The notes beneath the pieces are model-generated. The model worked only from the letters and a program-made list of their open reading frames with translations, was not told the origin of the DNA and ran no database searches. Positions 3,050 to 31,672 of a DNA stretch of 40,371 bases are shown here, piece by piece. The stretch is from the NCBI GenBank assembly GCA_001774495.1, contig MFAE01000002.1:1-40371 (forward strand), in the 5' to 3' direction. Each line of letters starts with the position of its first letter. Position 1 is the stretch's first letter. The DNA comes from Candidatus Campbellbacteria bacterium RIFOXYC2_FULL_35_25. GTDB lineage: Bacteria; Patescibacteriota; Minisyncoccia; Phycocordibacterales; UBA12079. The position numbers and the translations under genes were made by a program.

Positions 3050-3081
3050 TTGATAGTTACTAGTTACTAATTTCTAAAAAA

Positions 3082-3720
3082 ATGGAAGAAACAAAAGAAA
3101 AAAATAATAACGATTCAGTAGGAGAAGTAAAAGAAATTACTCCTGTTACTCCTATTACTCCGGTTGTTGCTACTCCCATTACTCCTGTTGTTGCTGAGAG
3201 CGCAACTACAGCAGGGGCTCCTTCCTCCGAAAGGACTTTTAAGAAAAATGTAAGACCAAGAAAACCTAGAGAACGTTTTGAAAGACAAAAACCAGAATTT
3301 GATCAAAAGATTATTAACATCAGAAGAGTTACTCGTGTTGTTAAGGGAGGTAGAAGGTTTAGTTTTAGTGTTGCTATGGTAATCGGGAACAGAAAAGGAT
3401 CAGTAGGTGTTGGTATTGGGAAGGGATCTGATACAGCTTTGGCTATAGAAAAAGCAATTCGAGATGCTAAAAAGAATTTACTTAAATTAAAATTGACCGA
3501 CAACATGTCTATTCCTTACGAAGTAGAGGCTAAGTACTGTTCTTCCAGTGTTGTTATTAGACCAGCGAAAGGAAGAGGTATTGTGGCAGGAAGCTCCGCT
3601 AGAGACGTTTTAGAATTGGCAGGAATTACAGAGGTGGGCGCAAAATTTTTATCGAGAAGCAAGAATAAATTAAATAATGCTCAAGTGGCTATAGAAGCCC
3701 TAAGAGAATTTGAAATGTAA
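3082..3720 (+). CDS. rpsE: 30S ribosomal protein S5 with low-complexity N-terminal extension
   Basis: IRRVTRVVKGGRRFSF, GRGIVAG. Confidence 0.97.
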   Translation: MEETKEKNNNDSVGEVKEITPVTPITPVVATPITPVVAESATTAGAPSSERTFKKNVRPRKPRERFERQKPEFDQKIINIRRVTRVVKGGRRFSFSVAMVIGNRKGSVGVGIGKGSDTALAIEKAIRDAKKNLLKLKLTDNMSIPYEVEAKYCSSSVVIRPAKGRGIVAGSSARDVLELAGITEVGAKFLSRSKNKLNNAQVAIEALREFEM

Positions 3721-3736
3721 TTATATAGATTTGTTA

Positions 3737-3796
3737 ATAAATTTCGCGAAGCGAAATTTATACTACAAACTACTCACTACTAACTACAAACTAAAA
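3737..3796. repeat. Heptamer/hairpin element (rpsE-rplO)
   Basis: ATAAATTTCGC-GAA-GCGAAATTTAT followed by ACTACAA ACTACTC ACTACTA ACTACAA ACTAAAA. Confidence 0.85.
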
Positions 3797-3800
3797 AAAT

Positions 3801-4232
3801 ATGCAACTTCATAACATACAAAAGAATAAAAATAATAAAAAAAGCATCCGTGTTGGGCGTGGTGGAAAGAGAGGAAAAACTTCCGGTAAAGGACATAAAG
3901 GACAAAACGCAAGAACTGGAAACAGCGGACGACCAGAGATTAGGGATATGATCAAGAAAATTCCTAAGCTAAGAGGTTATAATTTTAAATCTAGAAAAGA
4001 TAATGCTGTTCCTGTTAATTTGTCAGCTCTTGATAAGACTTTTGAGAAAGACGCTATTGTTAATCCTAAAGAGTTAGTTAAAGAAGGTGTCGTGAAAAGA
4101 AAAAGTGGGAAGATGCCAGTTATAAAGATATTAGCAACTGGTGAAATAACAAAAAAAATTACGGTGTCAGGTTGTACTTTTTCTGAAATGGCAAAGGAAA
4201 AAATAGAAAAAGCAGGAGGAACGATTAAGTAG
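3801..4232 (+). CDS. rplO: 50S ribosomal protein L15
   Basis: RVGRGGKRGKTSGKGHKGQNAR...KIEKAGG. Confidence 0.98.
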   Translation: MQLHNIQKNKNNKKSIRVGRGGKRGKTSGKGHKGQNARTGNSGRPEIRDMIKKIPKLRGYNFKSRKDNAVPVNLSALDKTFEKDAIVNPKELVKEGVVKRKSGKMPVIKILATGEITKKITVSGCTFSEMAKEKIEKAGGTIK

Positions 4233-4313
4233 TCTATAGTTGGTAGTCTATAGTCTATAGAATTTCGATAGTTTGTAATTTAACACTATAAACTATAAAC
4301 TATCGACTAAAAC
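4233..4313. repeat. Heptamer inverted-array element (rplO-secY)
   Basis: TCTATAG TTGGTAG TCTATAG TCTATAG ... CTATAAA CTATAAA CTATCGA CTAAAAC. Confidence 0.85.
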
Positions 4314-4316
4314 ATT

Positions 4317-5585: not shown

Positions 5586-5646
5586 GTTAGTTTTTAGTTG
5601 ATAGTTTTTAGTTTTTAGAAAAAATTCGCCAGAAGGCGATTTTTTT
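5586..5646. repeat. Heptamer/hairpin element after secY
   Basis: TTTTTAG TTGATAG TTTTTAG TTTTTAG then AAAAAATTCGCC-AGAA-GGCGATTTTTT. Confidence 0.75.
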
Positions 5647-5662
5647 ATTTTTAAACTTTATA

Positions 5663-5698: not shown

Positions 5699-5758
5699 GG
5701 ATTTGAGGGTGATTGTAATATAATGAAAGTTGTTATTAAGTTAAAAATTTCTAATAAG

Positions 5759-10946: not shown

Positions 10947-11291
10947 TTATTTAACTTGTTCGGTAATTCTCTGGAAAGTTTCAGGATGATTTTCTGCGAT
11001 ATCGGCTAATATTTTTCTGTTTAAACCAACTTCGTTTTTCGTTAATGTTCCTATAAATTTACTGTATGTAAATCCTAAAGCTCTCAATCCTGCATTCATT
11101 TTTACTTGCCATAGTTTTCTGAAATCACCCTTCTTCTTTCTTCTGTGAGCAAAAGCGTGAACTCCAGCATGCAAGATAGCCTCATGAGCTTGCGCTTCTT
11201 TCGTTGAGCGACCATTACGATAACCCTTTGCTAGACCTAGCATCTTTTTTCGTCTCTTTAATGAAGTTGTTCCTCTTTTTACTCTTGTCAT
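10947..11291 (-). CDS. rplT: 50S ribosomal protein L20
   Basis: MTRVKRG, AKGY, RRKKKGDFRKLW, LNRKILADIA. Confidence 0.98.
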   Translation of the reverse strand: MTRVKRGTTSLKRRKKMLGLAKGYRNGRSTKEAQAHEAILHAGVHAFAHRRKKKGDFRKLWQVKMNAGLRALGFTYSKFIGTLTKNEVGLNRKILADIAENHPETFQRITEQVK

Positions 11292-11314
11292 ATATTAGTT
11301 TTTAGAACTTAGAA

Positions 11315-17494: not shown

Positions 17495-17612
17495 CTGGTG
17501 GCTGTAAGCTTAAAAATGTTTGCATTTTGTTTCATAATATAGTAGATTTATAGCTGTTCAGTTTTGGAGTTTTTTCGAAAACTAAGAATCAAGAACTAAA
17601 AAATAAAAAAAG

Positions 17613-18023: not shown

Positions 18024-18118
18024 TAAGTAGTTGGTAGTGAGTAGTGAGTAGCAAAAAATTTGCAAAGCAAATTTTTTAAAAAGCTGTAAACTGTGAGCTG
18101 TCAGCTGTAAACTTAAAA
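18024..18118. repeat. Heptamer/hairpin element (rpsL-rpsG)
   Basis: 4x NNNGTAG, AAAAAATTTGC-AAA-GCAAATTTTTT, 4x CTGTNAR. Confidence 0.9.
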
Positions 18119-18121
18119 AAT

Positions 18122-18592
18122 ATGAGAAGACCAATAAAAGACAAAAGAAATATTCAACCAGACAGAGTTCATGACTCATTGGTTTTAGAGCGTTTTATAA
18201 ATTATGTTATGTGTGACGGTAAAAAAAGTGTCGCAAGAAAAGTAGTTTATGGTGCTTTAGAAAATATAAAAGAAAAAGCAAAAACAAAAGACCCTATTGA
18301 AGTTTTCAATGGAGCTATAAAAAATGCTGGTCCTTTAATGGAAGTTAAGTCTAGAAGAATCGGAGGAGCTAACTATCAGGTACCTAGAGAAGTTCCAGAA
18401 AAGAGAAGATTAGCCCTTGCTATGAGATGGATTCTTGAGGCAGCTAGAGCAAAAAAAGGATCTTCAATGAGTAAAAGATTGGCTGATGAATTGATTGCTG
18501 CAAATAATAATGAAGGAGAGGTTATAAAGAAGAAAGAGAATGTACACAAGATGGCTGACGCGAACAAAGCTTTTGCTCATTTTGCATGGTAA
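18122..18592 (+). CDS. rpsG: 30S ribosomal protein S7
   Basis: EVKSRRIGGANYQVP, HKMADANKAFAHF. Confidence 0.98.
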   Translation: MRRPIKDKRNIQPDRVHDSLVLERFINYVMCDGKKSVARKVVYGALENIKEKAKTKDPIEVFNGAIKNAGPLMEVKSRRIGGANYQVPREVPEKRRLALAMRWILEAARAKKGSSMSKRLADELIAANNNEGEVIKKKENVHKMADANKAFAHFAW

Positions 18593-18716
18593 AATAATTT
18601 TAAATTTAGAGAAATTCTTTGTCGACTTTGAAAAAAACTCCCTCACAGTATTTAAAATACGGCTCGGGAGTTTTTTTCTTGTCTCCTCGAATTTCATTTA
18701 AATTTAAAGTTATTTT
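18591..18716 (+). repeat. ~125-bp hairpin element, copy after rpsG
   Basis: TAAATTT..CTTTGTCG..TCACAGTATTTAAAATACGGCTC..CTCCTCG..AAATTTA. Confidence 0.85.
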
Positions 18717-18905
18717 TTGTCATGCAAAATATTATTTTTATTTAGGGAGAATTTATTGCTAAAAGCAATAAATTGATATATAGTATTACGCAATTAATCG
18801 TTTTACGATTTTTTTGTTTGGCAACAAAAATTTAAAAATTATTTATAAGAAATTAATAATAGTTTTTTGTTTTTTCTAAAAACTAAAAACTAGCAACTAA
18901 AAACT

Positions 18906-21056
18906 ATGAGCAGAGATTACCCATTGGAAAAAGTTAGAAATATTGGAATTATTGCCCACATTGATGCGGGAAAAACAACTGTGTCCGAAAGAGTTCTTTT
19001 TTACACAGGACTTTCGCATAAAATCGGTGAAGTTCACGAAGGTGAAGCTACTATGGACTGGATGGAACAGGAGAGAGAAAGGGGTATCACAATTACTTCT
19101 GCTGCTGTTACAACATTTTGGACGCCAACTTATGCTACAGGTAATGACTCTTTGAAACATCGTTTTAATATTATCGATACTCCTGGACACGTTGACTTCA
19201 CCGCTGAGGTGGAAAGGTCTCTTAAAGTTTTAGACGGAGGTGTAGTCGTTTTCGACGGTGTAGCCGGAGTAGAATCACAATCAGAAACCGTTTGGAGACA
19301 AGCTGATAAATATAAAGTTCCTAGGATTTGTTTCATCAATAAATTAGATAGAACTGGTGCTTCTTTCGATAGGTCTTTCAAGTCCATTATAGATAGACTA
19401 ACACCTAACGCTGTTAGAGCTCAATTGCCTATAGGAGAAGAGGGAAATCACGAAGGTGTAGTGGATCTTTTAACGATGAAAGCTTACTACTTTGAAGGAA
19501 ATATGGGGATGGATGTTAGGGAAGATGAGATTCCCGCAGACATGAAAGCCGAGGCTGAAAAATTCAGAGGAGAATTTATTGAAAAAATTGTTGAAAACGA
19601 CGAGGCGTTAATGAATGATTATCTAGAAGGGAAAGAAATTCCTCTTGATAAACTAAAAGCGACCTTGAGAAAAGGAGTAATTGCTTTGCAAATAATTCCT
19701 GTTTTTACAGGTTCTGCTCTAAAAAATAAGGGAGTTCAAAAAATGCTAGACGCCGTTGTTGATTATCTTCCTTCTCCACTCGATGTCCCTGCTATTAAAG
19801 GAATCGATCCTAAGACAGATAAAGAAGTTGAAAGACCTTCTGATGACAATGCTCCTTTTGCAGCTTTGGCTTTCAAATTGCAAACAGACCCGTTCGTAGG
19901 ACAATTAACTTTTTTTAGAGTTTATTCAGGAACTGTTGAAGCTGGTTCATACATTTACAATTCAACAACTGGTGAAAAAGAAAGACTAGGAAGAATCGTG
20001 AGAATGCATGCCAACGACAGAGAAGAGGTAAAGAAAGTTTATGCTGGAGAAATTGCAGCCGCTGTTGGTCTAAAAAGTACAAGAACATCAGATACTTTGT
20101 GTGATGAAAACAATCCAGTTATTCTAGAGAAGATTGAATTTATGAAACCTGTTGTGGCCGTAAGAATTGAACCTAAGACTAAGGCTGACCAAGAAAAGAT
20201 GGGGTTAGCTTTGAAGAAACTATCAGATGAAGATCCAACTTTCACAATAAATACAGATGCTGAAACTATGGAAACTATTATTGCTGGTATGGGAGAACTT
20301 CACTTGGAAGTTTTGGTAGACAGAATGAGAAGAGAATTTGGTGTTGAAGCTAATATCGGTAAACCTCAGGTTGCCTATAGAGAAACGATTCAAATACCAT
20401 CTTCTGCCGAAGTCAAATATGTTAAGCAGTCTGGAGGTAAGGGTCAGTATGGTCATGTTAAGATTAGAATTAAACCGTTAGAAAAATTAACAGAAGAAGA
20501 GATAAAGAACCTTCCTAAAAATACTAAGAGATTTGATGGAGGAATAGAATTTGTTAACAGTATTAAAGGAGGAGTTATTCCACAGGAATATATTCCTGCT
20601 GTAGAAAAAGGAATTAAAGAAGGAATGGAAAGAGGGGTTGTGGCTGGTTATAAGATGGTGGATGTTTCAACAGAATTATATGATGGTACTTACCACGACG
20701 TAGACTCATCAGAAATTGCTTTCAAGATTGCTGCATCACAAGCTTTTCAAGAAGCAGCAAGAAAAGCTAACCCAGTTTTACTTGAGCCCATTATGAAAGT
20801 CGAGGTTGTTACCCCAGAAGAATTTATGGGAGACGTAACTGGAAACCTAAGTTCAAAGAGAGGTCAAATTGATTCAATGGACGACAGAGGAGGGAACAGA
20901 GTAGTGAATGCTAAAGTTCCGTTGTCAGAAATGTTTGGGTACACAACTACTTTAAGGTCTATGACAGAAGGAAGAGCTTCTTCAACAATGGAGTTTGACC
21001 ACTATGATGTTGTTCCTGTTAATGTAGCTAAGGAGATAGTTGAGAAGAGGAAATAG
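18906..21056 (+). CDS. fusA: Elongation factor G
   Basis: [29 protein letters not shown]. Confidence 0.99.
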
Positions 21057-21091
21057 AAAGTAGATTTAGTCTTTTTAATTTACAAAAAGTT

Positions 21092-21121
21092 AAAAAAATA
21101 CCGCTCGAGCGGTATTTTTTT
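21092..21121 (+). terminator. Terminator after fusA
   Basis: AAAAAAATACCGC-TCGA-GCGGTATTTTTTT. Confidence 0.8.
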
Positions 21122-21176
21122 TAATCACATTTTTTCTAGTTTTATTTTTTAAAAAAAGTTATAATTCTTTTATAAT

Positions 21177-21458
21177 ATGGAAATAATAAATTTTGATATT
21201 GTAATGCTTGTTGTCATGATTGCCTCTTCCATTTGGGTATTCTTTATGATATCCGGTTATGGGGGAGTCATCGGGACTTCCTTTAAGACTATTGGGTGGG
21301 GGGCTATTTTTTTAGCAGGTTCTCATATATTTGAAGAATTAGCACATAAATTTATTACCTCGGAAATTAGTCAAACTTATGGTTTGTTGTATCACTCCAT
21401 AGAATTAGTTGGTTTTTTGATGATTATTTTTGGGCTTAGGATGTTGGTTAAAAAATAA
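21177..21458 (+). CDS. Small 3-TM membrane protein, paralog 1
   Basis: GYGGVIGTSFKTIGWGA motif shared with the next gene. Confidence 0.75.
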   Translation: MEIINFDIVMLVVMIASSIWVFFMISGYGGVIGTSFKTIGWGAIFLAGSHIFEELAHKFITSEISQTYGLLYHSIELVGFLMIIFGLRMLVKK

Positions 21459-21526
21459 AATTTTTTGTTTCAAATGATTGTTGTTGGTTTTCGAATATTA
21501 ATAGATTATGTTATTATTATAAAATT

Positions 21527-21814
21527 ATGGAAGTTTCTTTCTCAGTAGTTGTAGATTTAATCTTTTTTTCAATTCTTGTTGGTTCATCTCTTTTGCTTTT
21601 TATTATGCTTAGGGGGTACGGAGGCTCAATTGGTAAAAGTTTCGGGATAATTGGATGGGGAGCCCTCGTCTTTGGTTTTGCTTGTATATTAGAAAAATTC
21701 TTGCTCCAATTTTTTGGTTCTTATGGAAGTTTAATTAGTATTTTTAAAAATTTTCTTGATGCCACGGCATTACTTTTAATTTTATACGGATTTAAGTCGT
21801 TTTTAGGTAAATAG
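21527..21814 (+). CDS. Small 3-TM membrane protein, paralog 2
   Basis: GYGGSIGKSFGIIGWGA. Confidence 0.75.
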   Translation: MEVSFSVVVDLIFFSILVGSSLLLFIMLRGYGGSIGKSFGIIGWGALVFGFACILEKFLLQFFGSYGSLISIFKNFLDATALLLILYGFKSFLGK

Positions 21815-21851
21815 ATTTTTTTAGGAATGTTCGGAACTTCTCGAACAATTC

Positions 21852-21879
21852 TTGACTATTATTTATCTTTTGCTATTAT
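21852..21879 (+). promoter_or_regulatory. tuf promoter
   Basis: TTGACT-N16-TATTAT with extended TG. Confidence 0.55.
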
Positions 21880-21973
21880 ATGAGGGTAACGCAGTAGCGT
21901 TTATTTTTATATTTAATCACTTGCGTTAAAAGCGCGGTGTTAAAGTTATTATTAATAATTTAAAAAAAAAATT

Positions 21974-23170
21974 ATGGCAACTGAAGAATATAACAGAGAC
22001 AAGCCTCACGTAAATGTGGGAACCATCGGTCACGTTGACCACGGAAAGACAACTCTTACTGCAGCTATACTGCACGTTCTTAACCTAGCAGGAAACAAGG
22101 TTAAGTTGAGAGGTATTGATGATATTGATAATGCTCCAGAAGAAAAGGAGAGAGGAATTACAATTGCTCTTTCTCACAATGAGTATGAAACAAATGCTAG
22201 ACACTATGCTCATATCGATGCGCCAGGTCACGCAGACTACATCAAGAACATGATTACCGGTGCCGCTCAAATGGACGGTGCGATTTTAGTAGTTGCAGCA
22301 AACGACGGTGCTATGCCACAAACAAGAGAACACATCCTTTTGGCAAAGCAAGTTGGTGTACCTAAGATTATTGTTTTCTTAAACAAGATTGACCTTGTTG
22401 ACGATCCGGAGATGGTAGAATTGGTAGAAGAAGAAGTTAAAGACATGTTGAATCAATATGAATATGATGGAGATAATACTCCTTTCATCAAAGGTTCCGC
22501 TGTTAAAGCTCTTGAGACAACAGCAGTAACAGATGAATGGGCAGTACCAATCCTTGAATTAACAAAACAATTAGATGAATACATCCCTGTTCCTGTAAGA
22601 GATACAGACAAACCTTTCCTTATGCCAGTTGAAGATATTTTCTCAATTGAAGGAAGAGGAACAGTTTGTACTGGAAAGATTGAAAGAGGTATCATAAAAG
22701 TTGGTGAAGAAATTGCTATCGTTGGTATTAAAGACACTGTTAAGACAACAGTTACAGGTATCGAGATGTTCAACAAATCACTTTCAGAAGGACAGGCTGG
22801 GGACAACGCTGGTATTCTTCTAAGAGGAGTTAAGAAAGAAGATATCACAAGAGGACAGGTTCTTGCTAAACCAGGAACTGTTACACCTCATACAGATTTT
22901 GAAGCAGAAGTTTTGGTTCTAAAGAAAGAGGAAGGAGGACGACATACACCATTCTTCTCAGGATACAAACCTCAGTTCTACATCAGAACAACTGACGTTA
23001 CTGGAGAAGTTACTTTGAAAGAAGGTGTTGAAATGGTTATGCCAGGAGATACCGCTGTGTTCAAAGTTAAATTACATTCTCCAATTGCTCTTGAAGAACA
23101 ACAAAGATTTGCTGTTCGTGAAGGAGGGAGAACTGTTGGAGCCGGAGTAGTCACAAAAATCACCGCCTAA
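21974..23170 (+). CDS. tuf: Elongation factor Tu
   Basis: [38 protein letters not shown]. Confidence 0.99.
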
Positions 23171-23172
23171 GC

Positions 23173-23293
23173 AAGATTTCTAAATTTGACTCCTGACTTT
23201 GTCGGTATCAAGAAAATTTATTTCGCCGTATTGAAATACGCCTCAATAAATTTTCTCTCACCTCCTCGTCATGCATTCAAATTTAAAAATCTT
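23173..23293 (+). repeat. ~125-bp hairpin element, copy after tuf
   Basis: TAAATTT..CTTTGTCG..TCGCCGTATTGAAATACGCCTC..CTCCTCG..AAATTTA. Confidence 0.85.
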
Positions 23294-23397
23294 TATCTTT
23301 GCCCAAACTTTTGAAATTTATCGATTTGTCATTTTGCGCCTCATTTGGGACGCAAAAGTGACAGATTGATATAAAAAGAGTATAGTTAAAAAAAATT

Positions 23398-23751
23398 ATG
23401 GAAGAAACAACAAAAACAAAAAAGGTAGATAAGAAAGTTGATATTATTCAAAAACTTAGAATAAGAGTTTTTGCTTATGAGCATAAAATTTTAGACTCAT
23501 CTATAAAGCAAATTATAGATACAGCTTTAAGATTTGACGCTAATATTAGCGGACCGATTCCTTTGCCAACAGAAATAAAGAAATATACCGTTAACCGGTC
23601 TTCTTTTGTTCACAAGGATGCAAGAGAGCAATTTGAAATGAGGGTTCACCGAAGATTAATTGATATTTTGAATCCATCAGCAAAAATAATTGAGGCTCTT
23701 ACGAATCTTAGTTTACCTTCGGGAGTATCTATCGACGTTAAAATAATGTAG
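23398..23751 (+). CDS. rpsJ: 30S ribosomal protein S10
   Basis: GPIPLPT, HKDAREQFEMRVHRRLIDI. Confidence 0.98.
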   Translation: MEETTKTKKVDKKVDIIQKLRIRVFAYEHKILDSSIKQIIDTALRFDANISGPIPLPTEIKKYTVNRSSFVHKDAREQFEMRVHRRLIDILNPSAKIIEALTNLSLPSGVSIDVKIM

Positions 23752-23754
23752 TTT

Positions 23755-23877
23755 TATTTGCCCATTTTTACGTCATCTGCAAAAAATTTTCAATCACAAA
23801 ATTTTCACAATAGGATAACTATTGCTCAAATTTTGTTCAATCAAATTTTTCGCATCTAACCCAAAAATGAACAAATA
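23755..23877 (+). repeat. Related ~123-bp hairpin element after rpsJ
   Basis: Long interrupted inverted repeat with a TCAC-stem-CTC apex and a TCAATC/TCAATC internal loop. Confidence 0.65.
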
Positions 23878-23888
23878 TTGAATTTTAG

Positions 23889-23941
23889 AAATCAGCGTGA
23901 AGTTTTTTAAAACTTTGTTTTAAAAAACTTCACGCTGATTT
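23889..23941. terminator. 25-bp-arm perfect inverted repeat (terminator-like)
   Basis: AAATCAGCGTGAAGTTTTTTAAAAC-TTT-GTTTTAAAAAACTTCACGCTGATTT. Confidence 0.7.
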
Positions 23942-24105
23942 TGTTTTTATAGTCTTTGCGAGCGATAGCGAAGCAATCCAGAAGCAATCGAGAATCATTG
24001 ACAAAGTTTGACTGTTTGTGTATGTTTATTGTGTAATTAGTTCGTTTTTTATGAATAGTGGCAACATCCGTTTAGGATAGCCACACAACAGGGGAGGTTA
24101 GTACC

Positions 24106-24723
24106 ATGGGTACAAAAGCCGAAGAACAAGCAAAAAAATCCATTTTTTCTGTAGCAGTCGTTGCGGTTGAATTGGCAAAATTGTTTGAGAGAGCAGGGGC
24201 GAGTTTAGAGGAAATTGCCGATATCGCTCGAAGAGGAAATGAAGGATTTGCTCGGCAGTGTCTTGGTTTGTACCGTGGCACTCACGAGTTTGTTGAAATG
24301 TTCGACCCCACGACCTTAATCGACCGTAAAGGACTCTGGCTTTCCTCAAATTTTCAAAAAGACATTTTGTCGGTTGCAAAAAAGACGATAAGAGTTTCTT
24401 TGGAAACATCTTACTTTGATCTTGATAAACGAGAGGCAGACGTCGAGTTCAGGGGTCGTCTTGGTAAGAACCATGTTTTTACAGCCACAGAGTTTTGTCT
24501 TTGGCTCGACCAAAAAACTGCTCTTCAACCAAATGGAGAAGAAGGAGAGCTTTTAAAGAGAAATTTCTGTTACGTTTGCGGGGTTGATAATGAGGTCTTT
24601 GTTGTGCATGTTGATTGGTATGCCGGCGATCGGGAGTGGGTCGTGCGTGCTTATTCATTGGAGGGCGGTCCTGGGTCTTCTGGTAGTCGTGCCTTTTCTC
24701 GCAACAGTATCTTGGCAAAATAA
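24106..24723 (+). CDS. Probable DGR target (variable) protein with CLec-like C-terminus
   Basis: QPNGEEGELL..NFCYV..V.VDW....W.V.A......GSRAFSRN; only 9 A in 24601-24700; own SD (GGAGG), promoter at 23998-24026 and downstream hairpin. Confidence 0.65.
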   Translation: MGTKAEEQAKKSIFSVAVVAVELAKLFERAGASLEEIADIARRGNEGFARQCLGLYRGTHEFVEMFDPTTLIDRKGLWLSSNFQKDILSVAKKTIRVSLETSYFDLDKREADVEFRGRLGKNHVFTATEFCLWLDQKTALQPNGEEGELLKRNFCYVCGVDNEVFVVHVDWYAGDREWVVRAYSLEGGPGSSGSRAFSRNSILAK

Positions 24724-24807
24724 TCCTTTTTGACCCTTTGTACCCTTACCCCCTTGGAAGCTTTGACGAAAGTCGAGGTAACCAAGGGGTTTTGTTTTAA
24801 ATTTGTT

Positions 24808-24896
24808 CTTATTACTTACTACTTAATACCCGTCTACCACTGCGAGGCACAAGCGGGCAGGCTTATTACTAGAAATTTTAGTTCTACTAAAATTTT
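24808..24896. repeat. Heptamer/hairpin element interrupted by a 33-nt GC-rich insert
   Basis: CTTATTA CTTACTA CTTAATA [24829-24861] CTTATTA then AAATTTTAGT-TCT-ACTAAAATTT. Confidence 0.7.
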
Positions 24897-25021
24897 ACTT
24901 GATTTTCTTTTCGATTTGTGTAGAATATAAGGATTATAAAAAAGGTTTGAGCCTTTTTTGTTTTTAAGGATTGATTCGGGGAATTCGAATTTAATTCGTA
25001 GTATTCGGATTATATAATTTT

Positions 25022-25639
25022 ATGAAATTTATTCTGGGAACAAAAGAACAAATGACGCAAGTCTTCAACAAAGAAGGTGTGGTTTTTCCTGTTACAATTA
25101 TAAGTGCAGGACCAATTACAGTAACCCAGATTAAAAACAAAGAAGGGGATGGTTACGAATCTATCCAAGTTGGCTACGGAGAAAAGAAAGAAAAAAATAT
25201 AAACAAACCTATGAAGGGACATTTGAAGGATTTGGGAAATTTTAGATATTTGAAAGAATTTTCTAATCCAGACAATACTCCTTTTGAAGTAAAAGTTGGT
25301 GACAAGATCGACGTTTCTTCTTTTAAAGAAGGGGAAGAAGTTGTTGTTTCATCAATCAGCAAAGGTAAGGGTTTCCAAGGTGTTGTGAAGAGACACAATT
25401 TCTCAGGAGGTCCTCGTTCACATGGGCAGAAACACAGCGAGAGAAAGCCAGGTTCAATCGGCTCCACAGGCCCTCAGAAGGTGTTTAAGGGAACAAGGAT
25501 GGCTGGAAGGATGGGAAGTGACAGGGTGACTGTTAAAAATCTTGAAATCGTTCAAATTGATAAAGAGAATAACCGAATATTAATAAAAGGAGCAATTTCT
25601 GGAAGACGAGGAACTTTAGTAGAAATAGTATCTACATAG
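25022..25639 (+). CDS. rplC: 50S ribosomal protein L3
   Basis: SKGKGFQGVVKRHNF, PGSIG, RMAGRMG. Confidence 0.98.
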   Translation: MKFILGTKEQMTQVFNKEGVVFPVTIISAGPITVTQIKNKEGDGYESIQVGYGEKKEKNINKPMKGHLKDLGNFRYLKEFSNPDNTPFEVKVGDKIDVSSFKEGEEVVVSSISKGKGFQGVVKRHNFSGGPRSHGQKHSERKPGSIGSTGPQKVFKGTRMAGRMGSDRVTVKNLEIVQIDKENNRILIKGAISGRRGTLVEIVST

Positions 25640-25743
25640 TTTACAGATGACAGTTTACAGTTTACAGAGCAAATTTTGGCTAAAGCTAAAATTTTCCAGA
25701 AAGAAAAACTGTAAACTGTAAACTGTAAACTGTAAACTTAAAA
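25640..25743. repeat. Heptamer/hairpin element (rplC-rplD)
   Basis: 4x NTNACAG, AAATTTTGGC-TAAA-GCTAAAATTT, 4x CTGTAAA. Confidence 0.9.
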
Positions 25744-25746
25744 ATT

Positions 25747-26523
25747 ATGAAAACAGATATCTACAATCAAAACGGAAAAAAAACAGGTGAAATTTCATTA
25801 CCAGAGTCTGTTTTTGGTGTTGCTTTTAATAATGATTTGGTTCACCAGGTGGTGGTTTCTATGATGTCCAATAAGAGAGCCCCTATTTCTCATACAAAAG
25901 ACAGGGGAGAAGTTAGCGGAGGAGGTATAAAGCCATGGAGACAAAAAGGAACAGGACGAGCAAGACATGGTTCTAGCCGTTCACCGATTTGGCGTGGTGG
26001 AGGTGTAACTTTTGGCCCAACAAACGAAAAGAATTACAGTAGAAAAATAAACAAGAAAACAAACACAAAGGCTCTTTACACCGTTTTGTCACAGAAGTAC
26101 AGAGACGGAGAAATTCTTTTTGTGGATAATTTTGAATTAAAAGAACCTAAATCAAAAGATGCAAGAAATATTGTTTCTGATTTGAGCAACGTAAAAGGTT
26201 TTGAAGGGATGCTTTCCAAGAGAAAAAATTCACTACACATTGCTTTGGGAGACAAAGACAAGAACGTAGAAAAAAGTTTTAATAACTTTGGGAATATTCA
26301 AATTGGTGAAGTAAGAAATTTAAATATTTTAAATATTTTAAATTATAAATATTTGGTTATTTCTAATCCAGATAAAAGTATTGAATTCTTGACTGGTAAA
26401 AAAGGCGTTGAAAAAAACAAAGAAACAAAAACAGTTAAGAAAGTAGAAAAAAAAGAAGTAGTAAAAGAGGTAGAAGCAAAAGTTAAAGAAACAAAAGCTA
26501 AAAAAACAACAGTTAAAAAATAA
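25747..26523 (+). CDS. rplD: 50S ribosomal protein L4 with Lys/Glu-rich tail
   Basis: KPWRQKGTGRARHGS.RSPIWRGGG. Confidence 0.98.
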   Translation: MKTDIYNQNGKKTGEISLPESVFGVAFNNDLVHQVVVSMMSNKRAPISHTKDRGEVSGGGIKPWRQKGTGRARHGSSRSPIWRGGGVTFGPTNEKNYSRKINKKTNTKALYTVLSQKYRDGEILFVDNFELKEPKSKDARNIVSDLSNVKGFEGMLSKRKNSLHIALGDKDKNVEKSFNNFGNIQIGEVRNLNILNILNYKYLVISNPDKSIEFLTGKKGVEKNKETKTVKKVEKKEVVKEVEAKVKETKAKKTTVKK

Positions 26524-26532
26524 AGGTGATGT

Positions 26533-26589
26533 AAAAAAATTTGCGAAGCAAAATTTTTACTAAAAACTATCAACTATCAACTAAAAACT
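26533..26589. repeat. Heptamer/hairpin element (rplD-rplW)
   Basis: AAAATTTGC-GAA-GCAAAATTTT then CTAAAAA CTATCAA CTATCAA CTAAAAA CT-ATG. Confidence 0.9.
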
Positions 26590-26898
26590 ATGAAAAACGT
26601 TTCAGATATAAAAAATAATATAGGTAAATCAGAAGGAGTAATTTTGAATCCGAGAATTACAGAAAAGTCTTCAGATAAAACTGCTGAAAATGTTTATGTT
26701 TTTGATGTTTCTCTTAGGGCAAATAAGGTACAAATAAAAGAAGCAATAAAAAATATCTATAAAGTTGAACCTAGAAAAATTAATGTTAGTAAAGTAGTAG
26801 CAAAGAACGTTTTCTCAAGAGGGAGAAAAGGGGTTAAGACAGGAGGAAAAAAGGCTTTTGTTTTCTTGAAGAAAGGAGACAAGATAGACATAATTTAA
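26590..26898 (+). CDS. rplW: 50S ribosomal protein L23
   Basis: PRITEKS, ANKVQIKEAI, KKAFVFLKKG. Confidence 0.96.
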   Translation: MKNVSDIKNNIGKSEGVILNPRITEKSSDKTAENVYVFDVSLRANKVQIKEAIKNIYKVEPRKINVSKVVAKNVFSRGRKGVKTGGKKAFVFLKKGDKIDII

Positions 26899-26899
26899 G

Positions 26900-26987
26900 C
26901 TAACAGATTACAGCTGACAGCTGACAGCAAAAAATTTGCGAAGCAAATTTTTAAAAAGGCTGTAAACTGTAAACTGTGAGCTGTAAG
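26900..26987. repeat. Heptamer/hairpin element (rplW-rplB)
   Basis: 4x NTNACAG, AAAAATTTGC-GAA-GCAAATTTTT, 4x CTGTRAR. Confidence 0.9.
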
Positions 26988-27053
26988 CTTCATTAATAAT
27001 TAAAGTTCGCAATAGCTGATAATTATTGCAGGCCGTAGAGCCGATATAAAAAC

Positions 27054-27896
27054 ATGAAGATAAATAAACCAACAACACCATCAAGAAGACACATGACCGG
27101 TATAAATTACCGAGATTTTTTGACAGCTTCTGAACCACATAAAGCTCTTACGAAAGGTGGAAAGAGGGGGGTAGGAAGAAACGCTTTCGGAAGAATCACA
27201 ACAAGACACAAAGGAGGAGGTCATAAGAGAAAATATCGTCAAATTGATTTTAAATATAATAAATTTAATATTCCAGCAAAGGTAGAAACTGTTGAGTATG
27301 ATCCATACAGATCAGGTTTTATTGCTTTGGTATGTTACGAGGACGGAGAAAGAAGATATGTTTTAGCTCCAAAATCTGTGAAGGTTGGAGACAAGATGAT
27401 TGTTTCAGAAAAGGCAGAATTGAAAGCTGGAAACAGAGTAATGCTAAAAAATGCTCCCGTTGGTACTTATGTTTACAATGTTGAGATAAAACCGTTGGGT
27501 GGAGCAAAGATTGCAAGGTCAGCTGGAAATTATGCAGAAGTAATTGCTCATGACTCTGGATACATGCACCTAAAGATGCCTTCATCAGAAATTAGAAAAG
27601 TTTTAGATACTTGTTGGGCTTCTATTGGAGAAGTTTCAAATGATGAACATAAATTGGTTGTTATTGGAAAAGCCGGAAGATCTCGATGGATGGGAATAAG
27701 GCCAACCGTTAGAGGTAGTGCCATGAACCCAGTTGACCACCCTTATGGAGGCGGAGAAGGAAAGTCAGGACGAGGTTTGAGAAGAGCCAAGACAAAGTGG
27801 GGCAAGCCATCAGGAAAGGGTCAAAAGACAAGAACACCGAAGAAATATTCAAATCAACTTGTTGTTAGAAGGAGAAAGGTTGGTAAGAAGCGATAA
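27054..27896 (+). CDS. rplB: 50S ribosomal protein L2
   Basis: GGGHKR, EYDPYRS, RPTVRGSAMNPVDHPYGGGEG. Confidence 0.99.
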   Translation: MKINKPTTPSRRHMTGINYRDFLTASEPHKALTKGGKRGVGRNAFGRITTRHKGGGHKRKYRQIDFKYNKFNIPAKVETVEYDPYRSGFIALVCYEDGERRYVLAPKSVKVGDKMIVSEKAELKAGNRVMLKNAPVGTYVYNVEIKPLGGAKIARSAGNYAEVIAHDSGYMHLKMPSSEIRKVLDTCWASIGEVSNDEHKLVVIGKAGRSRWMGIRPTVRGSAMNPVDHPYGGGEGKSGRGLRRAKTKWGKPSGKGQKTRTPKKYSNQLVVRRRKVGKKR

Positions 27897-27929
27897 TTAT
27901 TTTAATTCAAAGTTTGAAATTATTTAAAC

Positions 27930-27963
27930 AAAAAAACAATGGTTAAGGCCATTGTTTTTTTTT
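27930..27963 (+). terminator. Terminator ending the S10 fragment after rplB
   Basis: AAAAAAACAATGG...CCATTGTTTTTTT. Confidence 0.75.
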
Positions 27964-27977
27964 GTGTTTTTAAACTA

Positions 27978-28006
27978 TTGACACTATTAAATAAGTAGCA
28001 TATAAT
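27978..28006 (+). promoter_or_regulatory. Consensus sigma70 promoter
   Basis: TTGACA-N17-TATAAT, a perfect match. Confidence 0.8.
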
Positions 28007-28012
28007 GTAAGT

Positions 28013-28197
28013 AAGAAAGAGAGTTGATTGTAACTTTTTGGTGAAGTTTTCCAAATCACTCCCCGTTCGCGCCCGGCGGAACCGGCTGTGGATGAAAGCT
28101 CCACGTAAGAGGGGTGGTAGGCTGAGTTCTTATAGCCGAACCACGTATCTAGAGAGTGATGCTGTGAGAAACCCCGTCGATTGGATGACGGGGTTTT
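28013..28197 (+). ncRNA. Putative stand-alone structured ncRNA, family unknown
   Basis: GC-rich multi-stem core at 28055-28160 between a perfect promoter and terminator AAACCCCGTC...GACGGGGTTTT. Confidence 0.55.
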
Positions 28198-28253
28198 CGC
28201 GTCTATCAGGAATCGTTTTTGCTACTAGGCTTAATAATTGATATTATATTACC

Positions 28254-29258
28254 ATGGTACAAAAAGTTCCTCCTAAAAATATAAAAGATATTGAGTTATC
28301 TCCTAAATCAATGACTATTGGCCTGTTGTCTTTGTTGGGTTTAGTCACTATATTTTTTAGTTTTTCTAGTTATATAAAATACAAAGAAAGAACAACTTTA
28401 AATAATGAGCAAGTCCAAACCTTACTTTCAAATTACGAAAAAAATCTTGAAGACCTTCAAAAAGAAGTTAATTCTTTAAGATTGGAAAGTGAGGGTGAGG
28501 TTTATGAAATAAAGAGAAAGTTAGCCGAAGAGGAAACTGTTAGAAAAGCGATTGAGCAAGAAAAACAATTTCAGGAAAAAATTTCTCAAGAAAAAATTAA
28601 TAATTTGGAAGCACGGCTTTCAGAAACCAGTTTGTCTCAGGACCTGACCTCTATAATAAAGCAATGGGAACCACTTATTGTTTATATAGCTTGTGACTCT
28701 AAATTAGCCAATTCTAATACTCACTATGATACTAGTGGTTCAGGCATAATGCTGAAATTCGAAGGAGAAGATGTAAAGGTTTTAACAAATAGGCATGTTT
28801 TACAAAGTCCCGATTCTTATAATTTAAGATTTTGTAGTATTGAGTTGCCCGATGGTAATTCAGAATATTCTGTTGGCATTGGAGATATTGAAGTCTCTGT
28901 TTCTGAGTATGATTGGGGAACTCTAAGTATAAAAAATCCTGATGTTTATACTTCGAAACTAACATCAACTTTGCCAAAATTTTGTGAGCAAAGGCCGTCT
29001 TTAGGAGACGAAATAGTCGTACTAGGCTTCCCTGGTATTGGGTCTACGGATAGCGTCACTGCTACCGACGGCATAATTGCAGGTTTTGATGGAAATTATT
29101 TTATAACTTCAGCAAAAGTAGACCAAGGCAATTCTGGCGGCGCTGCGATTTTAACAAAAAATAATTGTTTATTAGGGATTCCGACATTTGCTTCCTTGGG
29201 ACAAGTAGAGTCTCTGGCTAGAATTTTAGATATTTGGACTGTAATTGTTAAAAAATAA
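28254..29258 (+). CDS. Membrane-anchored trypsin-like (S1) serine protease with coiled-coil stalk
   Basis: N-terminal TM, coiled coil, LTNRHV, GFPG, GNSGG. Confidence 0.88.
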   Translation: MVQKVPPKNIKDIELSPKSMTIGLLSLLGLVTIFFSFSSYIKYKERTTLNNEQVQTLLSNYEKNLEDLQKEVNSLRLESEGEVYEIKRKLAEEETVRKAIEQEKQFQEKISQEKINNLEARLSETSLSQDLTSIIKQWEPLIVYIACDSKLANSNTHYDTSGSGIMLKFEGEDVKVLTNRHVLQSPDSYNLRFCSIELPDGNSEYSVGIGDIEVSVSEYDWGTLSIKNPDVYTSKLTSTLPKFCEQRPSLGDEIVVLGFPGIGSTDSVTATDGIIAGFDGNYFITSAKVDQGNSGGAAILTKNNCLLGIPTFASLGQVESLARILDIWTVIVKK

Positions 29259-29349
29259 GGCAAAAATTTGACTTGTATATATTTAAAATGTTATCTTCAC
29301 GTAAGAAGCTTAATTCAGTTCTTTTTAACTAAGGAGAAAGGAGGCCCTT

Positions 29350-30036
29350 ATGAAGATAAAAATTTTTTGTTCCGTGTCGTTTATTGTTTTTTTCTTATGG
29401 ACAGGAAACATTTGGGCCTTTGAAAAATTGGAAATTTCTAGAGGCGTAGAATGGAAAGCTTTCGTTCACAGCAATCTTGTTTTAGGAGAAACTGAAGCGA
29501 ACAAAAACCCCCGTTATTTTAATGGCATGCGGGTTAAGCCTAAGTCTGTTTCCGGGGCTTATGTTTACGGCACTCAGCTTGAGTGGAATAAGTCTGACTG
29601 GGAAATAAATTTTGATTTGAAAGGCAAGTTAGAGTTGGCTCTTAATAAGATTGGGAATTTAGAATTTTCGACACAAGTCAAAAGAGGAGGGGAGTTTGGT
29701 TATCTATCCGTTGATACACAATGGTCAGAAGATCTTTTTCGGGTAGGTTTTAATTTTGAGCAAAAAAATTCTAGAACAACTCTAAAAAATGTTTTTTATT
29801 ACGTAGACAATGGTGTTTTTGGAGGAAATTTGTTTGTCGGGTATCTCCCTTCAAAATGGGTAGAATTTCACGCCCAGATTAGTGGGGAGAAAAATGTTCA
29901 AGAGTCGTTTAAAGCAGTTTGGGTGAATGGTTTAACCTTTTCATTCCCTCGGCAGATGAGTCTTTCGTTCGATTATGAAATCCACGAAAATCAGGAGGCT
30001 GATGCAATACAGGTTTGCTGGAAGTTCCTTTTTTGA
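29350..30036 (+). CDS. Secreted beta-rich hypothetical protein
   Basis: Signal peptide, amphipathic strands, C-terminal Phe; AAGGAGG SD; terminator at about 30059-30100. Confidence 0.7.
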   Translation: MKIKIFCSVSFIVFFLWTGNIWAFEKLEISRGVEWKAFVHSNLVLGETEANKNPRYFNGMRVKPKSVSGAYVYGTQLEWNKSDWEINFDLKGKLELALNKIGNLEFSTQVKRGGEFGYLSVDTQWSEDLFRVGFNFEQKNSRTTLKNVFYYVDNGVFGGNLFVGYLPSKWVEFHAQISGEKNVQESFKAVWVNGLTFSFPRQMSLSFDYEIHENQEADAIQVCWKFLF

Positions 30037-30408
30037 TTATTCTTCTTAGATTTTTGGGAGGTCGGAAGTTCAGCTTATGGCTGAACCTCCGACCTTTTTT
30101 CTATATTTTGATAGCATATATTAATGAAAAGTTGCTAGTCGGGGGTATTTTCCTTAGGCTTGAAAAATGTATCCGAATTACTGAATGTTAAATGATAGGG
30201 AAATGACTAGACAAGAAAGGAGTTATGATGTGGACTATCTTGCTTAAGTAGTATATATCTAGCAAAGTTTAACAATTTTGATATAATATAGATTATTATT
30301 AACAAAAGTTTTTAGATAGCAGTTTTTAGTTTTTAGAGATAGTGAAAACTTTGCTTTACAAATTTTCACTTACTACTCGATATTAGATGTTTGCTACTTA
30401 TTTATATT

Positions 30409-30618
30409 ATGAACAATACAGTAAAATGGGTAATAGGAGTAATTGTTGTTGCAGCAATAGTTTGGTTTGGTTTCATGAACAAATCAGAAGTTAAAGAAGA
30501 AGCAATAACAGAAGACACAACAACAGAAGAGGTTATGGATGTTGAAGTGAATATAGACGTTGTAGATCCAGGAGTTTCTGCAGATACAGAAGTTCCTACT
30601 GAAGAAGTAGCTCAATAA
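30409..30618 (+). CDS. Small membrane-anchored acidic protein
   Basis: N-terminal TM plus Glu/Thr-rich tail; followed by a terminator at about 30635-30678. Confidence 0.7.
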   Translation: MNNTVKWVIGVIVVAAIVWFGFMNKSEVKEEAITEDTTTEEVMDVEVNIDVVDPGVSADTEVPTEEVAQ

Positions 30619-30775
30619 TAAATTTATTATTGATATAAAATAAAAAACTACCTGTACAGGTAGTTTTTTATTTTATATTGCTATCTTAGAATTTTTTATT
30701 ATATTTTGATATTATAATAGTATCCTATTTTAGGTACTTTCAGCTTTATAAATTTTTAACTTTTTACTAATTTTT

Positions 30776-31672
30776 ATGCCAGAGTTACCAGAGGTACAAA
30801 CAATCGTGAATGATTTGAATAAGAAAGTTGTTGACCAGCAAATCATTGATTTTTGGAGTGATTGGAAAAAGAATGTTCGTCCAAGTTTTTTGAAATTTAA
30901 AAAAAAAGTTTCCGGAGCAAAAATCTTGGGGGTGAGGAGAAGGGGGAAACATATTGTTATTGATTTAGGTAATAAAAACTCGATTATTATTCATTTAAAA
31001 ATGTCAGGACACCTCTTGTACAAGCCGACAGCTGACAGCTTACAGCTAACAGCTAGAAGAAATTTTGGCTCCGCCAAAATTTCTTCTAAAAATGATTATT
31101 TTGAAGAGAGGGTGAATCAATATGTGCACCATAAATTCAGTTTGAAAAGTGGAGCAACTTTGGAATTTTCAGATATGAGAAAGTTTGGGTGGCTGTGGGT
31201 TGTTGCGACTGATGAAGTGGAAAATATTAAAGAAATTAAAAAATTAGGAATTGATGCTATGAGTGAAAATTTTAGTTTAAAAATTTTAAAAGATATTTTG
31301 AAAAGAAAGGTAAAAAGTATTATAGGAATTGTTCTTTTAGATCAAGGATTAATTGCAGGAATTGGTAACATTTACCGAAGTGAAATTTTATTTGAGGCAG
31401 AGGTTAATCCAAAAAGAAAAATTTTAACACTAAAAGAAAAAGAGATTGAAAAAATTTTTAAGGCAATAAATTTAATATTAAAAAAAGCAGTAAGAATGAG
31501 GGGGACTTCTGATGTTGATTATCGTGATACAGAAGGGAAGCCTGGCAGTTTCCAAAATGTTTTGAGAGTATACGGGAGAGACGGAGAAAGGTGCTTGGGG
31601 TGTAGAGGTTTGGTAATAAGGGAAAAGCTTGGACAAAGAAGCATATTCTTTTGCCCAAAGTGTCAGAAATAA
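30776..31672 (+). CDS. mutM: Formamidopyrimidine-DNA glycosylase
   Basis: MPELPEV, HLKMSG, DMRKFG, GIGNIY..E, C-terminal Zn finger. Confidence 0.97.
   Translation: MPELPEVQTIVNDLNKKVVDQQIIDFWSDWKKNVRPSFLKFKKKVSGAKILGVRRRGKHIVIDLGNKNSIIIHLKMSGHLLYKPTADSLQLTARRNFGSAKISSKNDYFEERVNQYVHHKFSLKSGATLEFSDMRKFGWLWVVATDEVENIKEIKKLGIDAMSENFSLKILKDILKRKVKSIIGIVLLDQGLIAGIGNIYRSEILFEAEVNPKRKILTLKEKEIEKIFKAINLILKKAVRMRGTSDVDYRDTEGKPGSFQNVLRVYGRDGERCLGCRGLVIREKLGQRSIFFCPKCQK
31025..31088. repeat. Heptamer/hairpin element in frame inside mutM
   Basis: CCGACAG CTGACAG CTTACAG CTAACAG then TAGAAGAAATTTTGGC-TCC-GCCAAAATTTCTTCTA. Confidence 0.88.

Follow-up and report, generated by a model that had tools for sequence, protein, structure and literature searches.

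Introduction

Heptamer repeats beside start codons are known from Beggiatoaceae, Cyanobacteria and Bacteroidetes, and the accessible part of the source that describes them establishes no mechanism (PMC4679880). In marine Beggiatoaceae, some Cyanobacteria and Bacteroidetes, tandem 7-nt TAACTGA units occur in sets of 2-6 copies, with ~170 sets per genome, and their function is given as unknown. As far as that part of the source goes, the sets are mostly 'forward' and end ~1 nt before start codons lacking a ribosome binding site (RBS), including those of fusA and of the genes for L3, S4 and S1; a minority lies reversed just past stop codons, a few are found in open reading frames (ORFs) and the phylogenetic distribution is patchy (MacGregor 2015, PMC4679880). 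Judged by the same part of the paper, the TAACTGA repeats are the closest published analogue of the element treated here, and not the same family. Our element consists of arrays of degenerate heptamers, often combined with a small hairpin, and was studied in the first 40,371 bases of contig C2 from the groundwater bacterium Candidatus Campbellbacteria bacterium RIFOXYC2_FULL_35_25; "the window" denotes this stretch at its full length. The genome (G000; 782,376 bases, 15 contigs, ~35% G+C) is rated 100% complete, and the window contains ribosomal-protein and translation genes. A comparison of ribosomal protein S7 puts Patescibacteria with labels such as Nomurabacteria and Paceibacterota closest among the named relatives (60-67% identity). 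Coding DNA is ~73-81% identical among the members of the genus, for which we used a set of seven genomes including G000-G006, with the complete sister genome G005 as a replicate.

Several other systems invite comparison. Rickettsia palindromic elements (RPE) and the Correia elements of Neisseria are small non-autonomous palindromic repeats that form hairpins when transcribed; to our knowledge, they are neither built of heptamer arrays nor packed against start and stop codons. We likewise know of no heptamer periodicity in repetitive extragenic palindromes (REP). In the hut operon of Bacillus, HutP recognizes UAG-N4-UAG-N4-UAG beside a terminator, and the short tandemly repeated repetitive sequences (STRR) of Cyanobacteria are heptamer repeats. 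For the contiguous TTTTGAA/TTCAAAA heptamers of Nostoc, found near starts or promoters, a regulatory role has been proposed and the accessible part of the preprint identifies no binder (bioRxiv 10.1101/2022.06.06.494920). A literature search returned no paper on heptamer arrays in Patescibacteria, nor on loss of the anti-Shine–Dalgarno sequence there; PMC12641178 and PMC6851277, scanned for terms only, yielded nothing that bears on the subject.

Results

The element measures ~30-110 bp, is palindromic in form, and is built from at most three modules. First comes an arm of NNNN-YAG heptamers, 4-5 in number, then a hairpin enclosed by an A-run and a T-run, in many cases a GC-GNA-GC mini-hairpin, and last a second arm of CTR-NNNN heptamers. 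Within the units only the YAG/CTR anchor and the period of 7 are constant, all other bases being degenerate. Throughout the genome the inner side of the arrays carries the mini-hairpin, a stronger A-run/GC/T-run hairpin, or nothing.

The arrays are real and occur far above chance. None of 100 shuffles reaches the 22 matches that the triple-anchor pattern TAGNNNNTAGNNNNTAG (TAG-N4-TAG-N4-TAG) makes in the window (0.24 expected), and its CAG version has 12 against 0.07. In G000 as a whole there are 151 YAG arrays with at least three anchors, compared with 25-43 in ten shuffles. When any NAG triplet is accepted and at least four anchors are required, the counts are 202 against 24 in G000 and 239 against 17 in G005 (one shuffle each). 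An earlier note on this DNA, made from the sequence of the window, had asked for a comparison with composition-matched shuffled intergenic DNA, and the arrays exceed shuffled sequence by a wide margin in window and genome; its placement of the element at junctions of translation genes proved too narrow, the arrays being genome-wide. The period is equally distinct. Periodic trinucleotides number 810 in G000 and 794 in G005 at period 7, and 7-214 at periods 5, 6, 8 and 9, while a scan that does not use the anchors found 64 regions of period 7 in either genome as against 12 and 4 (G000) or 9 and 2 (G005) for periods 6 and 8. Array length peaks at 31 nt (55 of 151) and 24 nt (54 of 151), and the 785 heptamer units in 782 kb amount to about one unit per kb. 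Arrays adjoin 81 genes of G000, of which 44 have them in the leader only, 30 in the trailer only and 7 in both; those recognized by their N-termini are housekeeping genes, for ribosomal proteins, tRNA synthetases, EF-G, LepA, TypA, FtsZ, DnaN and SecY.

Orientation is outward, with NNNN-YAG units just past a stop codon and CTR-NNNN units just ahead of a start codon. Of 109 arrays, 65 have their outer end (the 5′ end of the YAG strand) at most 20 nt from a gene boundary; for the inner end this is true of 11 of 108. Thirty-one of these 65 follow a stop codon (11 share its TAG) and 34 precede a start, ending -1 to 20 nt before the ATG with CTR-N4 on the sense strand. The bias toward boundaries holds in long spacers, where 23 arrays were observed against 6.5 expected (100-200 nt), 6 against 1.3 (200-400 nt) and 8 against 1.0 (>400 nt), and it is replicated in G005 (90 of 197 against 20). 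By the any-NAG definition with at least four anchors, there are 50 leader arrays in G000 and 56 in G005, and 36 trailer arrays in G000. On the sense strand leaders contain 5-7% G and trailers 5-12% C. The heptamer families are also distributed unequally: the TAGTTTT family is skewed to leaders (leader:trailer 26:8 in G000, 31:11 in G005), whereas TAGTGAG is skewed to trailers (20:5), as is AAGGAGT in G005 (11:1).

Three paralogues on contig C8 (21377-21874, 67259-67888 and 68428-69003) are a separate case. Their called N-termini encode array-derived peptides (LLTTHYSLQT...) that directly precede a prepilin motif of the KSGFTLIE type, and these arrays may be the leaders of a later start codon.

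Copies of the element are dispersed and turn over between sister genomes. Array-bearing spacers are connected by 91 BLAST high-scoring segment pairs, and composite copies at unrelated loci are ~90% identical; taken whole, the rpsL-rpsG element has counterparts on contig C1 (89.5% identity, 95 nt), at rplW-rplB (90%, 61 nt) and in the 16S rRNA gene (90%, 51 nt). The rpsL-rpsG spacer illustrates the variation within the genus. It holds the full element in G000 (98 nt), purine heptamers with the same mini-hairpin as in G000 and a CTA array in G003 and G004, another repeat with a CTA array in G002, a CTA array in G005 (36 nt) and ATTTATA heptamers, not of the CTA type, in G006, and is empty in G001 (13 nt). 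An array thus stands ahead of rpsG in five of the seven members. The rplD-rplW spacer, 66 nt long in G000, holds a full element in G002 (134 nt) and measures just 2 nt in G005 and G006, and copy number at rplC-rplD differs in 7-nt steps between G005 and G006. Each genome has its own heptamer dialect, and G002 repeats a near-identical element of ~95 nt at five or more junctions. Across the order the arrays are patchy: G001, of the same genus, gives only three array hits, and among 73 Patescibacteria at greater distance just 4 have an array at rpsL-rpsG. The left (YAG) and right (CTR) arms mirror each other in form, and the complementarity of their inner 4 nt does not exceed that of arms paired at random. 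The earlier note had offered, as one of its readings, a non-autonomous mobile or recombinogenic element, and had asked for an alignment of the same junctions in relatives. The presence/absence polymorphism at orthologous junctions is what such an element would produce, as are the dispersed composites and the copies within genes described below.

Two further repeats were seen. Purine-rich repeats with a period of ~8 nt (CAGAAGAA-like) lie directly past stop codons at C8:653-823, C14:684-931 and C7:659-924, the copies being 95% identical over 141 nt. A motif pair, GTCTTTGCGAG ... GAAGCAATCCAG, recurs in the spacers C2:84764-84939, C10:5762-5913 and C5:103285-103382, and likewise in the fpg insertion of G004.

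Some copies lie within genes, at sites that tolerate them. In the fpg genes of G000, G002 and G004 an array with a hairpin is inserted in frame behind HLKMSGHLLYK. G001, G005, G009, G011 and G012 lack it, and two of these (G005 and G009) have other small palindromes there. The copy in G000 (31029-31087, plus strand) consists of a CAG array and the hairpin aaattttggc-tcc-gccaaaattt and counts as an insertion when compared with 5 of the 10 relatives in the alignment. A leuS-like gene contains an array with a five-residue gap relative to G005, and in a tsaD-like gene the array has the same length in G000 and G005 while the peptide has switched dialect (both identities were taken from motifs). All three copies sit in surface loops of the proteins. 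The 16S rRNA gene, outside the window at C2:85725-87306, carries a 130-nt insertion at the tip of a helix where the Rfam model has 4 nt. This insertion includes a full element whose mini-hairpin is identical to that of rpsL-rpsG, and in the 16S rRNA gene of G005 ~150 nt, written in the AAG/CTT dialect of that genome, are inserted at the same helix tip. As a separate observation, a 23S rRNA gene begins in the last part of the window (39640-40371), distant from the 16S gene on the same contig.

The earlier note had also pointed to four-helix-bundle gene cassettes flanked by 7-mer repeats, of which the element might be the empty form. That suggestion is not supported: no array-flanked, gene-filled allele was found at 17 junctions in four genomes, the small variable ORFs of the window match no helical-bundle family, and the recognized genes among the 81 with arrays are, as said, housekeeping genes.

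In the window itself, where copies were checked by direct reading and arrays were merged from TAG/CAG pattern matches, 16 merged arrays lie at or within a few bases of the places given in the earlier note. The genes named below were identified against NCBIfam (rplO, secY, rpsL, rpsG, fusA, rplC, rplD, rplW, rplB and fpg), and arrays are on the plus strand unless stated. Four copies have the full form of left YAG array, centre and right CTR array. At 4230-4309 the trailer array (4230-4260) begins with the TAG stop codon of rplO and the leader array (4286-4309) ends 7 nt before the secY ATG (4317); the AAATTT-GC-NNN-GC-AAATTT hairpin, which the earlier note had described as central, is lacking here, though the anatomy given in that note holds at most of the places it lists. 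At 18021-18107 the trailer array (18021-18051) starts with the rpsL TAG stop, followed by the mini-hairpin aaaaaatttgc-AAA-gcaaatttttt (18053-18077) and a CTG-N4 leader array with the degenerate tail taaactt-aaaaaat (18084-18117) before the rpsG ATG (18122). At 25637-25732 the rplC TAG stop opens the trailer array (25637-25667), the central hairpin is aaattttggc-taaa-gctaaaattt (25671-25695), and CTGTAAA units with a tail (25709-25742) lead to the rplD ATG (25747). At 26904-26983 a CAG-N4 trailer array (26904-26927) begins 5 nt past the rplW stop, and the mini-hairpin aaaaaatttgc-GAA-gcaaattttt (26929-26952) is followed by a CTG-N4 right arm (26960-26983) that ends 70 nt before the rplB ATG, with genus-conserved sequence in between. 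That left arrays start in register with the stop codons of rplO, rpsL and rplC had been recognized before, and direct reading bears it out.

The other copies are partial. Hairpin and right array only are present at 3737-3793, where the mini-hairpin aaatttcgc-GAA-gcgaaattt (3737-3761) precedes a CTA-N4 leader array of five anchors (3763-3793) ending 7 nt short of the rplO ATG (3801), and at 26533-26590, where the mini-hairpin aaaaaaatttgc-GAA-gcaaaattttt (26533-26558) precedes a leader array (26560-26590) in register with the rplW ATG. A lone right array (18876-18906) stands in the same register before fusA; at both genes the array indeed runs into the start (CTAAAAA-CT-ATG), as the earlier note had it. 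Left array and hairpin occur together at 5588-5646: the trailer array (5588-5618) begins 2 nt past the secY stop, and the A-run, GC hairpin and T-run behind it (aaaaaattcgcc-agaa-ggcgattttttt; 5619-5646) look terminator-like by eye only. A left array of TAG/CAG units with an imperfect hairpin (30313-30372) lies upstream of a small ORF (30409-30618). Three remnants were seen: a leader array (CTAGTTA CTAATTT CTAAAAAA; 3050-3081) that occupies the spacer before ORF 3082-3720, a short leader array of three anchors on the minus strand (11296-11312) before the minus-strand ORF 10947-11291, and a CTG-type array (GCTGGTG GCTGTAA GCTTAAAAA; 17495-17522) directly past the stop of ORF 16877-17494. Of the copies listed in the earlier note, that at 24808-24896 turned out to be a weak three-unit stretch of CTT type, and that at 31025-31088 is present, lying in frame inside the fpg coding sequence, which had gone unremarked.

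The sequence d(GCGAAGC) is an unusually stable DNA mini-hairpin. In the genome TTTGC-GAA-GCAAA occurs 7 times, and the forms with TTC and AAA in the loop 6 and 3 times. A replication or transcription bias of the hairpin loop was considered and dropped, none being found in G005 (41 hairpins, 19 GNA and 22 TNC). Nor did any leader match its own trailer for pairing in the two cases inspected by eye, rplO and rplW.

Beyond the arrays, a separate palindromic dispersed repeat of ~125 nt lies after rpsG (window 18590-18720; self-match in reverse 75%). It has many copies in G000 and the genus, with a similar copy, by eye, after tuf at ~23171-23300. The junctions fusA-tuf, rpsG-fusA and downstream of rplB (window 21177-21814 and the orthologous sites) hold between 0 and 5 small unannotated ORFs, varying among four genomes.

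Discussion

The arrays bear the marks of two kinds of sequence. Since dispersal, dialects, presence or absence at orthologous sites and the copies in rRNA and coding loops resemble REP and bacterial interspersed mosaic element (BIME), RPE or miniature inverted-repeat transposable element (MITE) families, they can be read as a mobile family; since polarity is outward, adjacency to genes holds in long spacers, composition and families are skewed and position is partly conserved, they can be read as a selected module. Together, the signs of a repeat family and those of a transcribed, selected module lead us to a combined model, to which we give a probability of roughly 0.4: a REP/BIME-, RPE- or MITE-like mosaic element that spreads or is homogenized and is kept at gene boundaries as a leader and as a three-frame stop or spacer. 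The element would spread or be homogenized through copy-and-paste or gene conversion and would persist where it is harmless or helpful. Its stop-side arm could supply stop codons in all three frames and, before a terminator-like hairpin that would work in both directions, a spacer poor in C. The start-side arm would be a G-poor, A-rich, unstructured 5′ leader suited to initiation independent of a Shine–Dalgarno (SD) sequence, for instance via the four-domain S1 protein encoded in the genome. The missing anti-SD sequence of the 16S rRNA, the small number of genes with SD-like leaders and the sharing of leader arrays with G005, all detailed below, count for this model too. Selection on the transcribed strand may then sort the heptamer families into surviving leaders and trailers.

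A number of observations weigh against this model. No mobilizing enzyme could be linked to the arrays. The earlier note was right that none is visible in the window; elsewhere in the genome there are six genes resembling Y1 transposases or REP-associated tyrosine transposases (RAYT), at C13:11-685, C6:2462-3115, C6:20018-20701, C6:114905-115582, C10:24050-24736 and C7:5858-6520, for which the best NCBIfam match is REP_Tyr_transpos, below its cut-off. Five of the six are bracketed on both sides by a GC-rich palindrome of their own with 1-6 genome copies each (one has six copies on contig C6), and heptamer arrays flank none of them. We rejected a link to RAYT, since the hairpins beside these genes are unlike the arrays and low in number, and since across 41 relatives the number of Y1 genes does not track that of array hits (0 against 20 in G023, 5 against 0 in G035, 5 against 3 in G001). 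TnpB, DDE_Tnp_1, rve and IS110 were not found in the genome. The copies in fpg, in the 16S rRNA gene and in spacers show no target-site duplication, no clean empty site could be defined, and homology between copies extends up to stop and start codons, which suits an immobile host module at least equally well. As to function, stops in all three frames of the outward strand occur in 67% and 85% of arrays as against 6% of array-free 28-mers, an enrichment that is partly built in because TAG anchors were chosen; in the anchor-free set 52 of 70 arrays have them outward and 28 of 70 inward. Units anchored by CAG or AAG are often without a stop codon, so that a three-frame-stop role does not hold for all arrays. 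Flanked by an A-run and a T-run, the mini-hairpins contain only two G-C pairs, and a terminator scan of 17000-32000 flagged no mini-hairpin within range; other arrays in the genome do face strong terminators. Finally, distances to starts are approximate because the gene calls are crude (ATG starts only, at least 70 aa; 786 genes, 80% coverage), and the sequencing runs listed for the groundwater communities with this genome included DNA runs and none of RNA.

The arrays might instead be an immobile, host-encoded cis-regulatory module, which we think unlikely while taking it seriously. CTR arrays would be an SD-independent leader code, for example by giving S1 or a cold-shock protein a standby site, and YAG arrays with their hairpin a 3′-end module, likeness and dialects arising from co-evolution with a trans-acting reader and from slippage. 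The translation apparatus offers a setting for such a code. The 3′ end of the 16S rRNA reads GGAUUAUUUCAAAU in place of the usual bacterial GGAUCACCUCCUU and has no CCUCC anti-SD sequence, which is missing from the 16S rRNA of G005 as well, and of 785 genes only 126 are preceded by an SD-like 4-mer. Besides the protein with four S1 domains (390 aa), the genome encodes one cold-shock protein. S1 lies at C12:13382-14380 and the cold-shock protein at C9:31979-32164. Tight placement at starts and stops, long spacers included, G-poor leaders and position-skewed families all fit a module of this kind, as does the recurrence of an array ahead of rpsG. Leader arrays are shared between orthologues of G000 and G005 more often than expected (14 of 47 against 36 of 400; odds ratio 4.3, p = 2e-4), trailers less clearly so (5 of 35 against 24 of 412; p = 0.07). 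A parallel is provided by the TAACTGA repeats, which in the accessible part of their description end ~1 nt before RBS-less starts, including those of fusA, L3, S4 and S1 (PMC4679880). On the other hand, the copies in 16S rRNA and coding sequences are found without a start or stop codon beside them, 70% of leader arrays have no counterpart in G005, whole composites are ~90% identical in unrelated contexts, and most related lineages of similar biology, like G001 with its three hits, do without arrays.

Other features of expression in this host were also considered. A TATAAT peak 6-9 nt ahead of the ATG (71 sites genome-wide), from which leaderless transcripts are read as frequent, suggests that leaderless mRNAs may be widespread. 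An alternative SD sequence complementary to the 16S tail was discarded, there being no enrichment upstream of starts. A promoter role of the arrays was set aside as well: a -10-like hexamer is found at most 40 nt upstream in only 14 of 42 leader arrays, and the arrays lack a T at the last position of the -10 hexamer.

Could the heptamers be periodic sites for a protein, the alternative offered in the earlier note, and more precisely for an oligomeric nucleic-acid-binding protein of the HutP type, tuning termination or marking gene boundaries on DNA? We regard this as quite doubtful. The NAG-N4 period, the 4-5 units and the preferred lengths of 31 and 24 nt would suit such a protein, and the arrays lie directly upstream of A-run/T-run hairpins, which would have to carry the control of termination since Rho was not found in the genome; the genome-specific dialects would suit co-evolution with a reader. 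Yet the HutP family (PF09021) has no match in the genome at E <= 1, no candidate reader protein was identified, a single reader would not explain several heptamer families in one genome, and half of the arrays read NAG solely on the antisense strand of a leader.

More speculatively, and in our view doubtful to a still higher degree, CUA-N4 arrays could be a replacement ribosome-recruitment code for leadered or operon-internal genes in bacteria without an anti-SD sequence. In one version each of the four S1 OB domains would read one heptamer; in a bolder one the arrays would pair with the heptamer-bearing expansion segment at the 16S helix tip. Under a code of this kind the dialects would reflect co-evolution of mRNA leader and ribosome.

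Pairing of the two arms in polycistronic mRNA as a long interrupted helix, serving stop-start coupling or cleavage by RNase III, appears improbable. In the sense-strand fold the arms do pair in three of the four window elements (z-scores -3.2 to -9 over all four), the base of the helix would lie at the stop and start codons, the genome encodes RNase III, and in G000 alone the sense strand is the more stable in 8 of 12 full elements. However, over 25 full elements from two genomes sense and antisense stability do not differ significantly (Wilcoxon p = 0.12), the difference being no larger than in array-free background spacers (p = 0.45). The inner 4 nt of arms from the same spacer are 44% complementary, compared with 47 +/- 3% for random arm pairs (16 two-arm spacers), some spacers combine non-complementary arm families, and the majority of arrays are lone. 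Covariation of a long hairpin was therefore dropped, same-spacer arms matching no better than random ones and the sense strand having no significant advantage.

Patescibacteria rely on DNA uptake, and signals for uptake or recombination like the DUS of Neisseria or the USS of Haemophilus, with dialects and with inverted pairs forming terminators, would account for genome-specific dialects, for the inverted layout around terminator-like hairpins and for a density of about one unit per kb; multiple unrelated families within one genome, strict outward orientation and adjacency to starts and stops would be unexpected, which makes this explanation very improbable. Neutral simple-sequence repeats, functionless, immobile and grown by replication slippage in AT-rich spacers, would explain the 7-nt differences between G005 and G006 at rplC-rplD and the similarity of units within an array, but expansion at period 7 only, defined array sizes of 24-31 nt, non-random orientation and placement and the recurrence of composites, hairpin included, leave them hardly credible. 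A small part of the overall probability we assign to none of these readings.

If the arrays aid translation or termination, they would be operon punctuation in an ultra-small bacterium without an SD signal; if they are purely selfish, a repeat family thrives in a streamlined genome of 0.78 Mb and enters even rRNA and housekeeping proteins. In practical terms, arrays of this kind may interrupt assemblies and displace start-codon calls for genomes of the phylum.

Several traits are shared with the REP/BIME-RAYT systems: the units are extragenic, transcribed and palindromic, form intergenic mosaics of family-specific sequence and occur in a genome with six Y1/RAYT-like genes. As to the GTAG-type head of REP/BIME, GTAG adjoins the hairpin in the TAGTGAG/TAGTTGG family; other families have ATAG, TTAG or ACAG. 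The difference lies in the RAYT-like genes, which here are flanked by other hairpins, do not track the arrays in number and fall below the REP_Tyr_transpos cut-off. With RPE and Correia elements the arrays share in-frame copies within conserved protein genes (fpg, leuS-like, tsaD-like) and copies within RNA genes (16S). The HutP site resembles them in having NAG triplets at 4-nt spacing beside a terminator hairpin; it differs in that no HutP homologue is present here, that there are ~200 sites instead of one, and that half of these have NAG solely on the antisense strand. The heptamers of Nostoc and the STRR are made of other units and belong to another phylum, and in the accessible part of their description neither mirrored arms nor a central hairpin is mentioned.

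The TAACTGA repeats come closest. Taken in register, TAACTGA is CTGATAA, a CTR-N4 unit, and according to the accessible part of the source the two systems have in common the period, the placement before RBS-less starts, a patchy spread and a few copies in ORFs. The TAACTGA unit itself occurs singly 84 times in G000 and 59 times in G005, with no tandem pair in either. Relative to what that part of the source describes, the units here are degenerate, with anchor and period fixed, and the number of trailers comes close to that of leaders (36 against 50). The present genome offers the cleaner case, with ~200 arrays in 782 kb, strictly oriented at both ends of genes, no Rho found, a TATAAT position that suggests many leaderless transcripts, and turnover and dialects among sister genomes. 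Measured against the same description, it is also here that arms pair around a mini-hairpin, that composites are dispersed and have entered the 16S rRNA gene, and that the host itself has a 16S rRNA without an anti-SD sequence.

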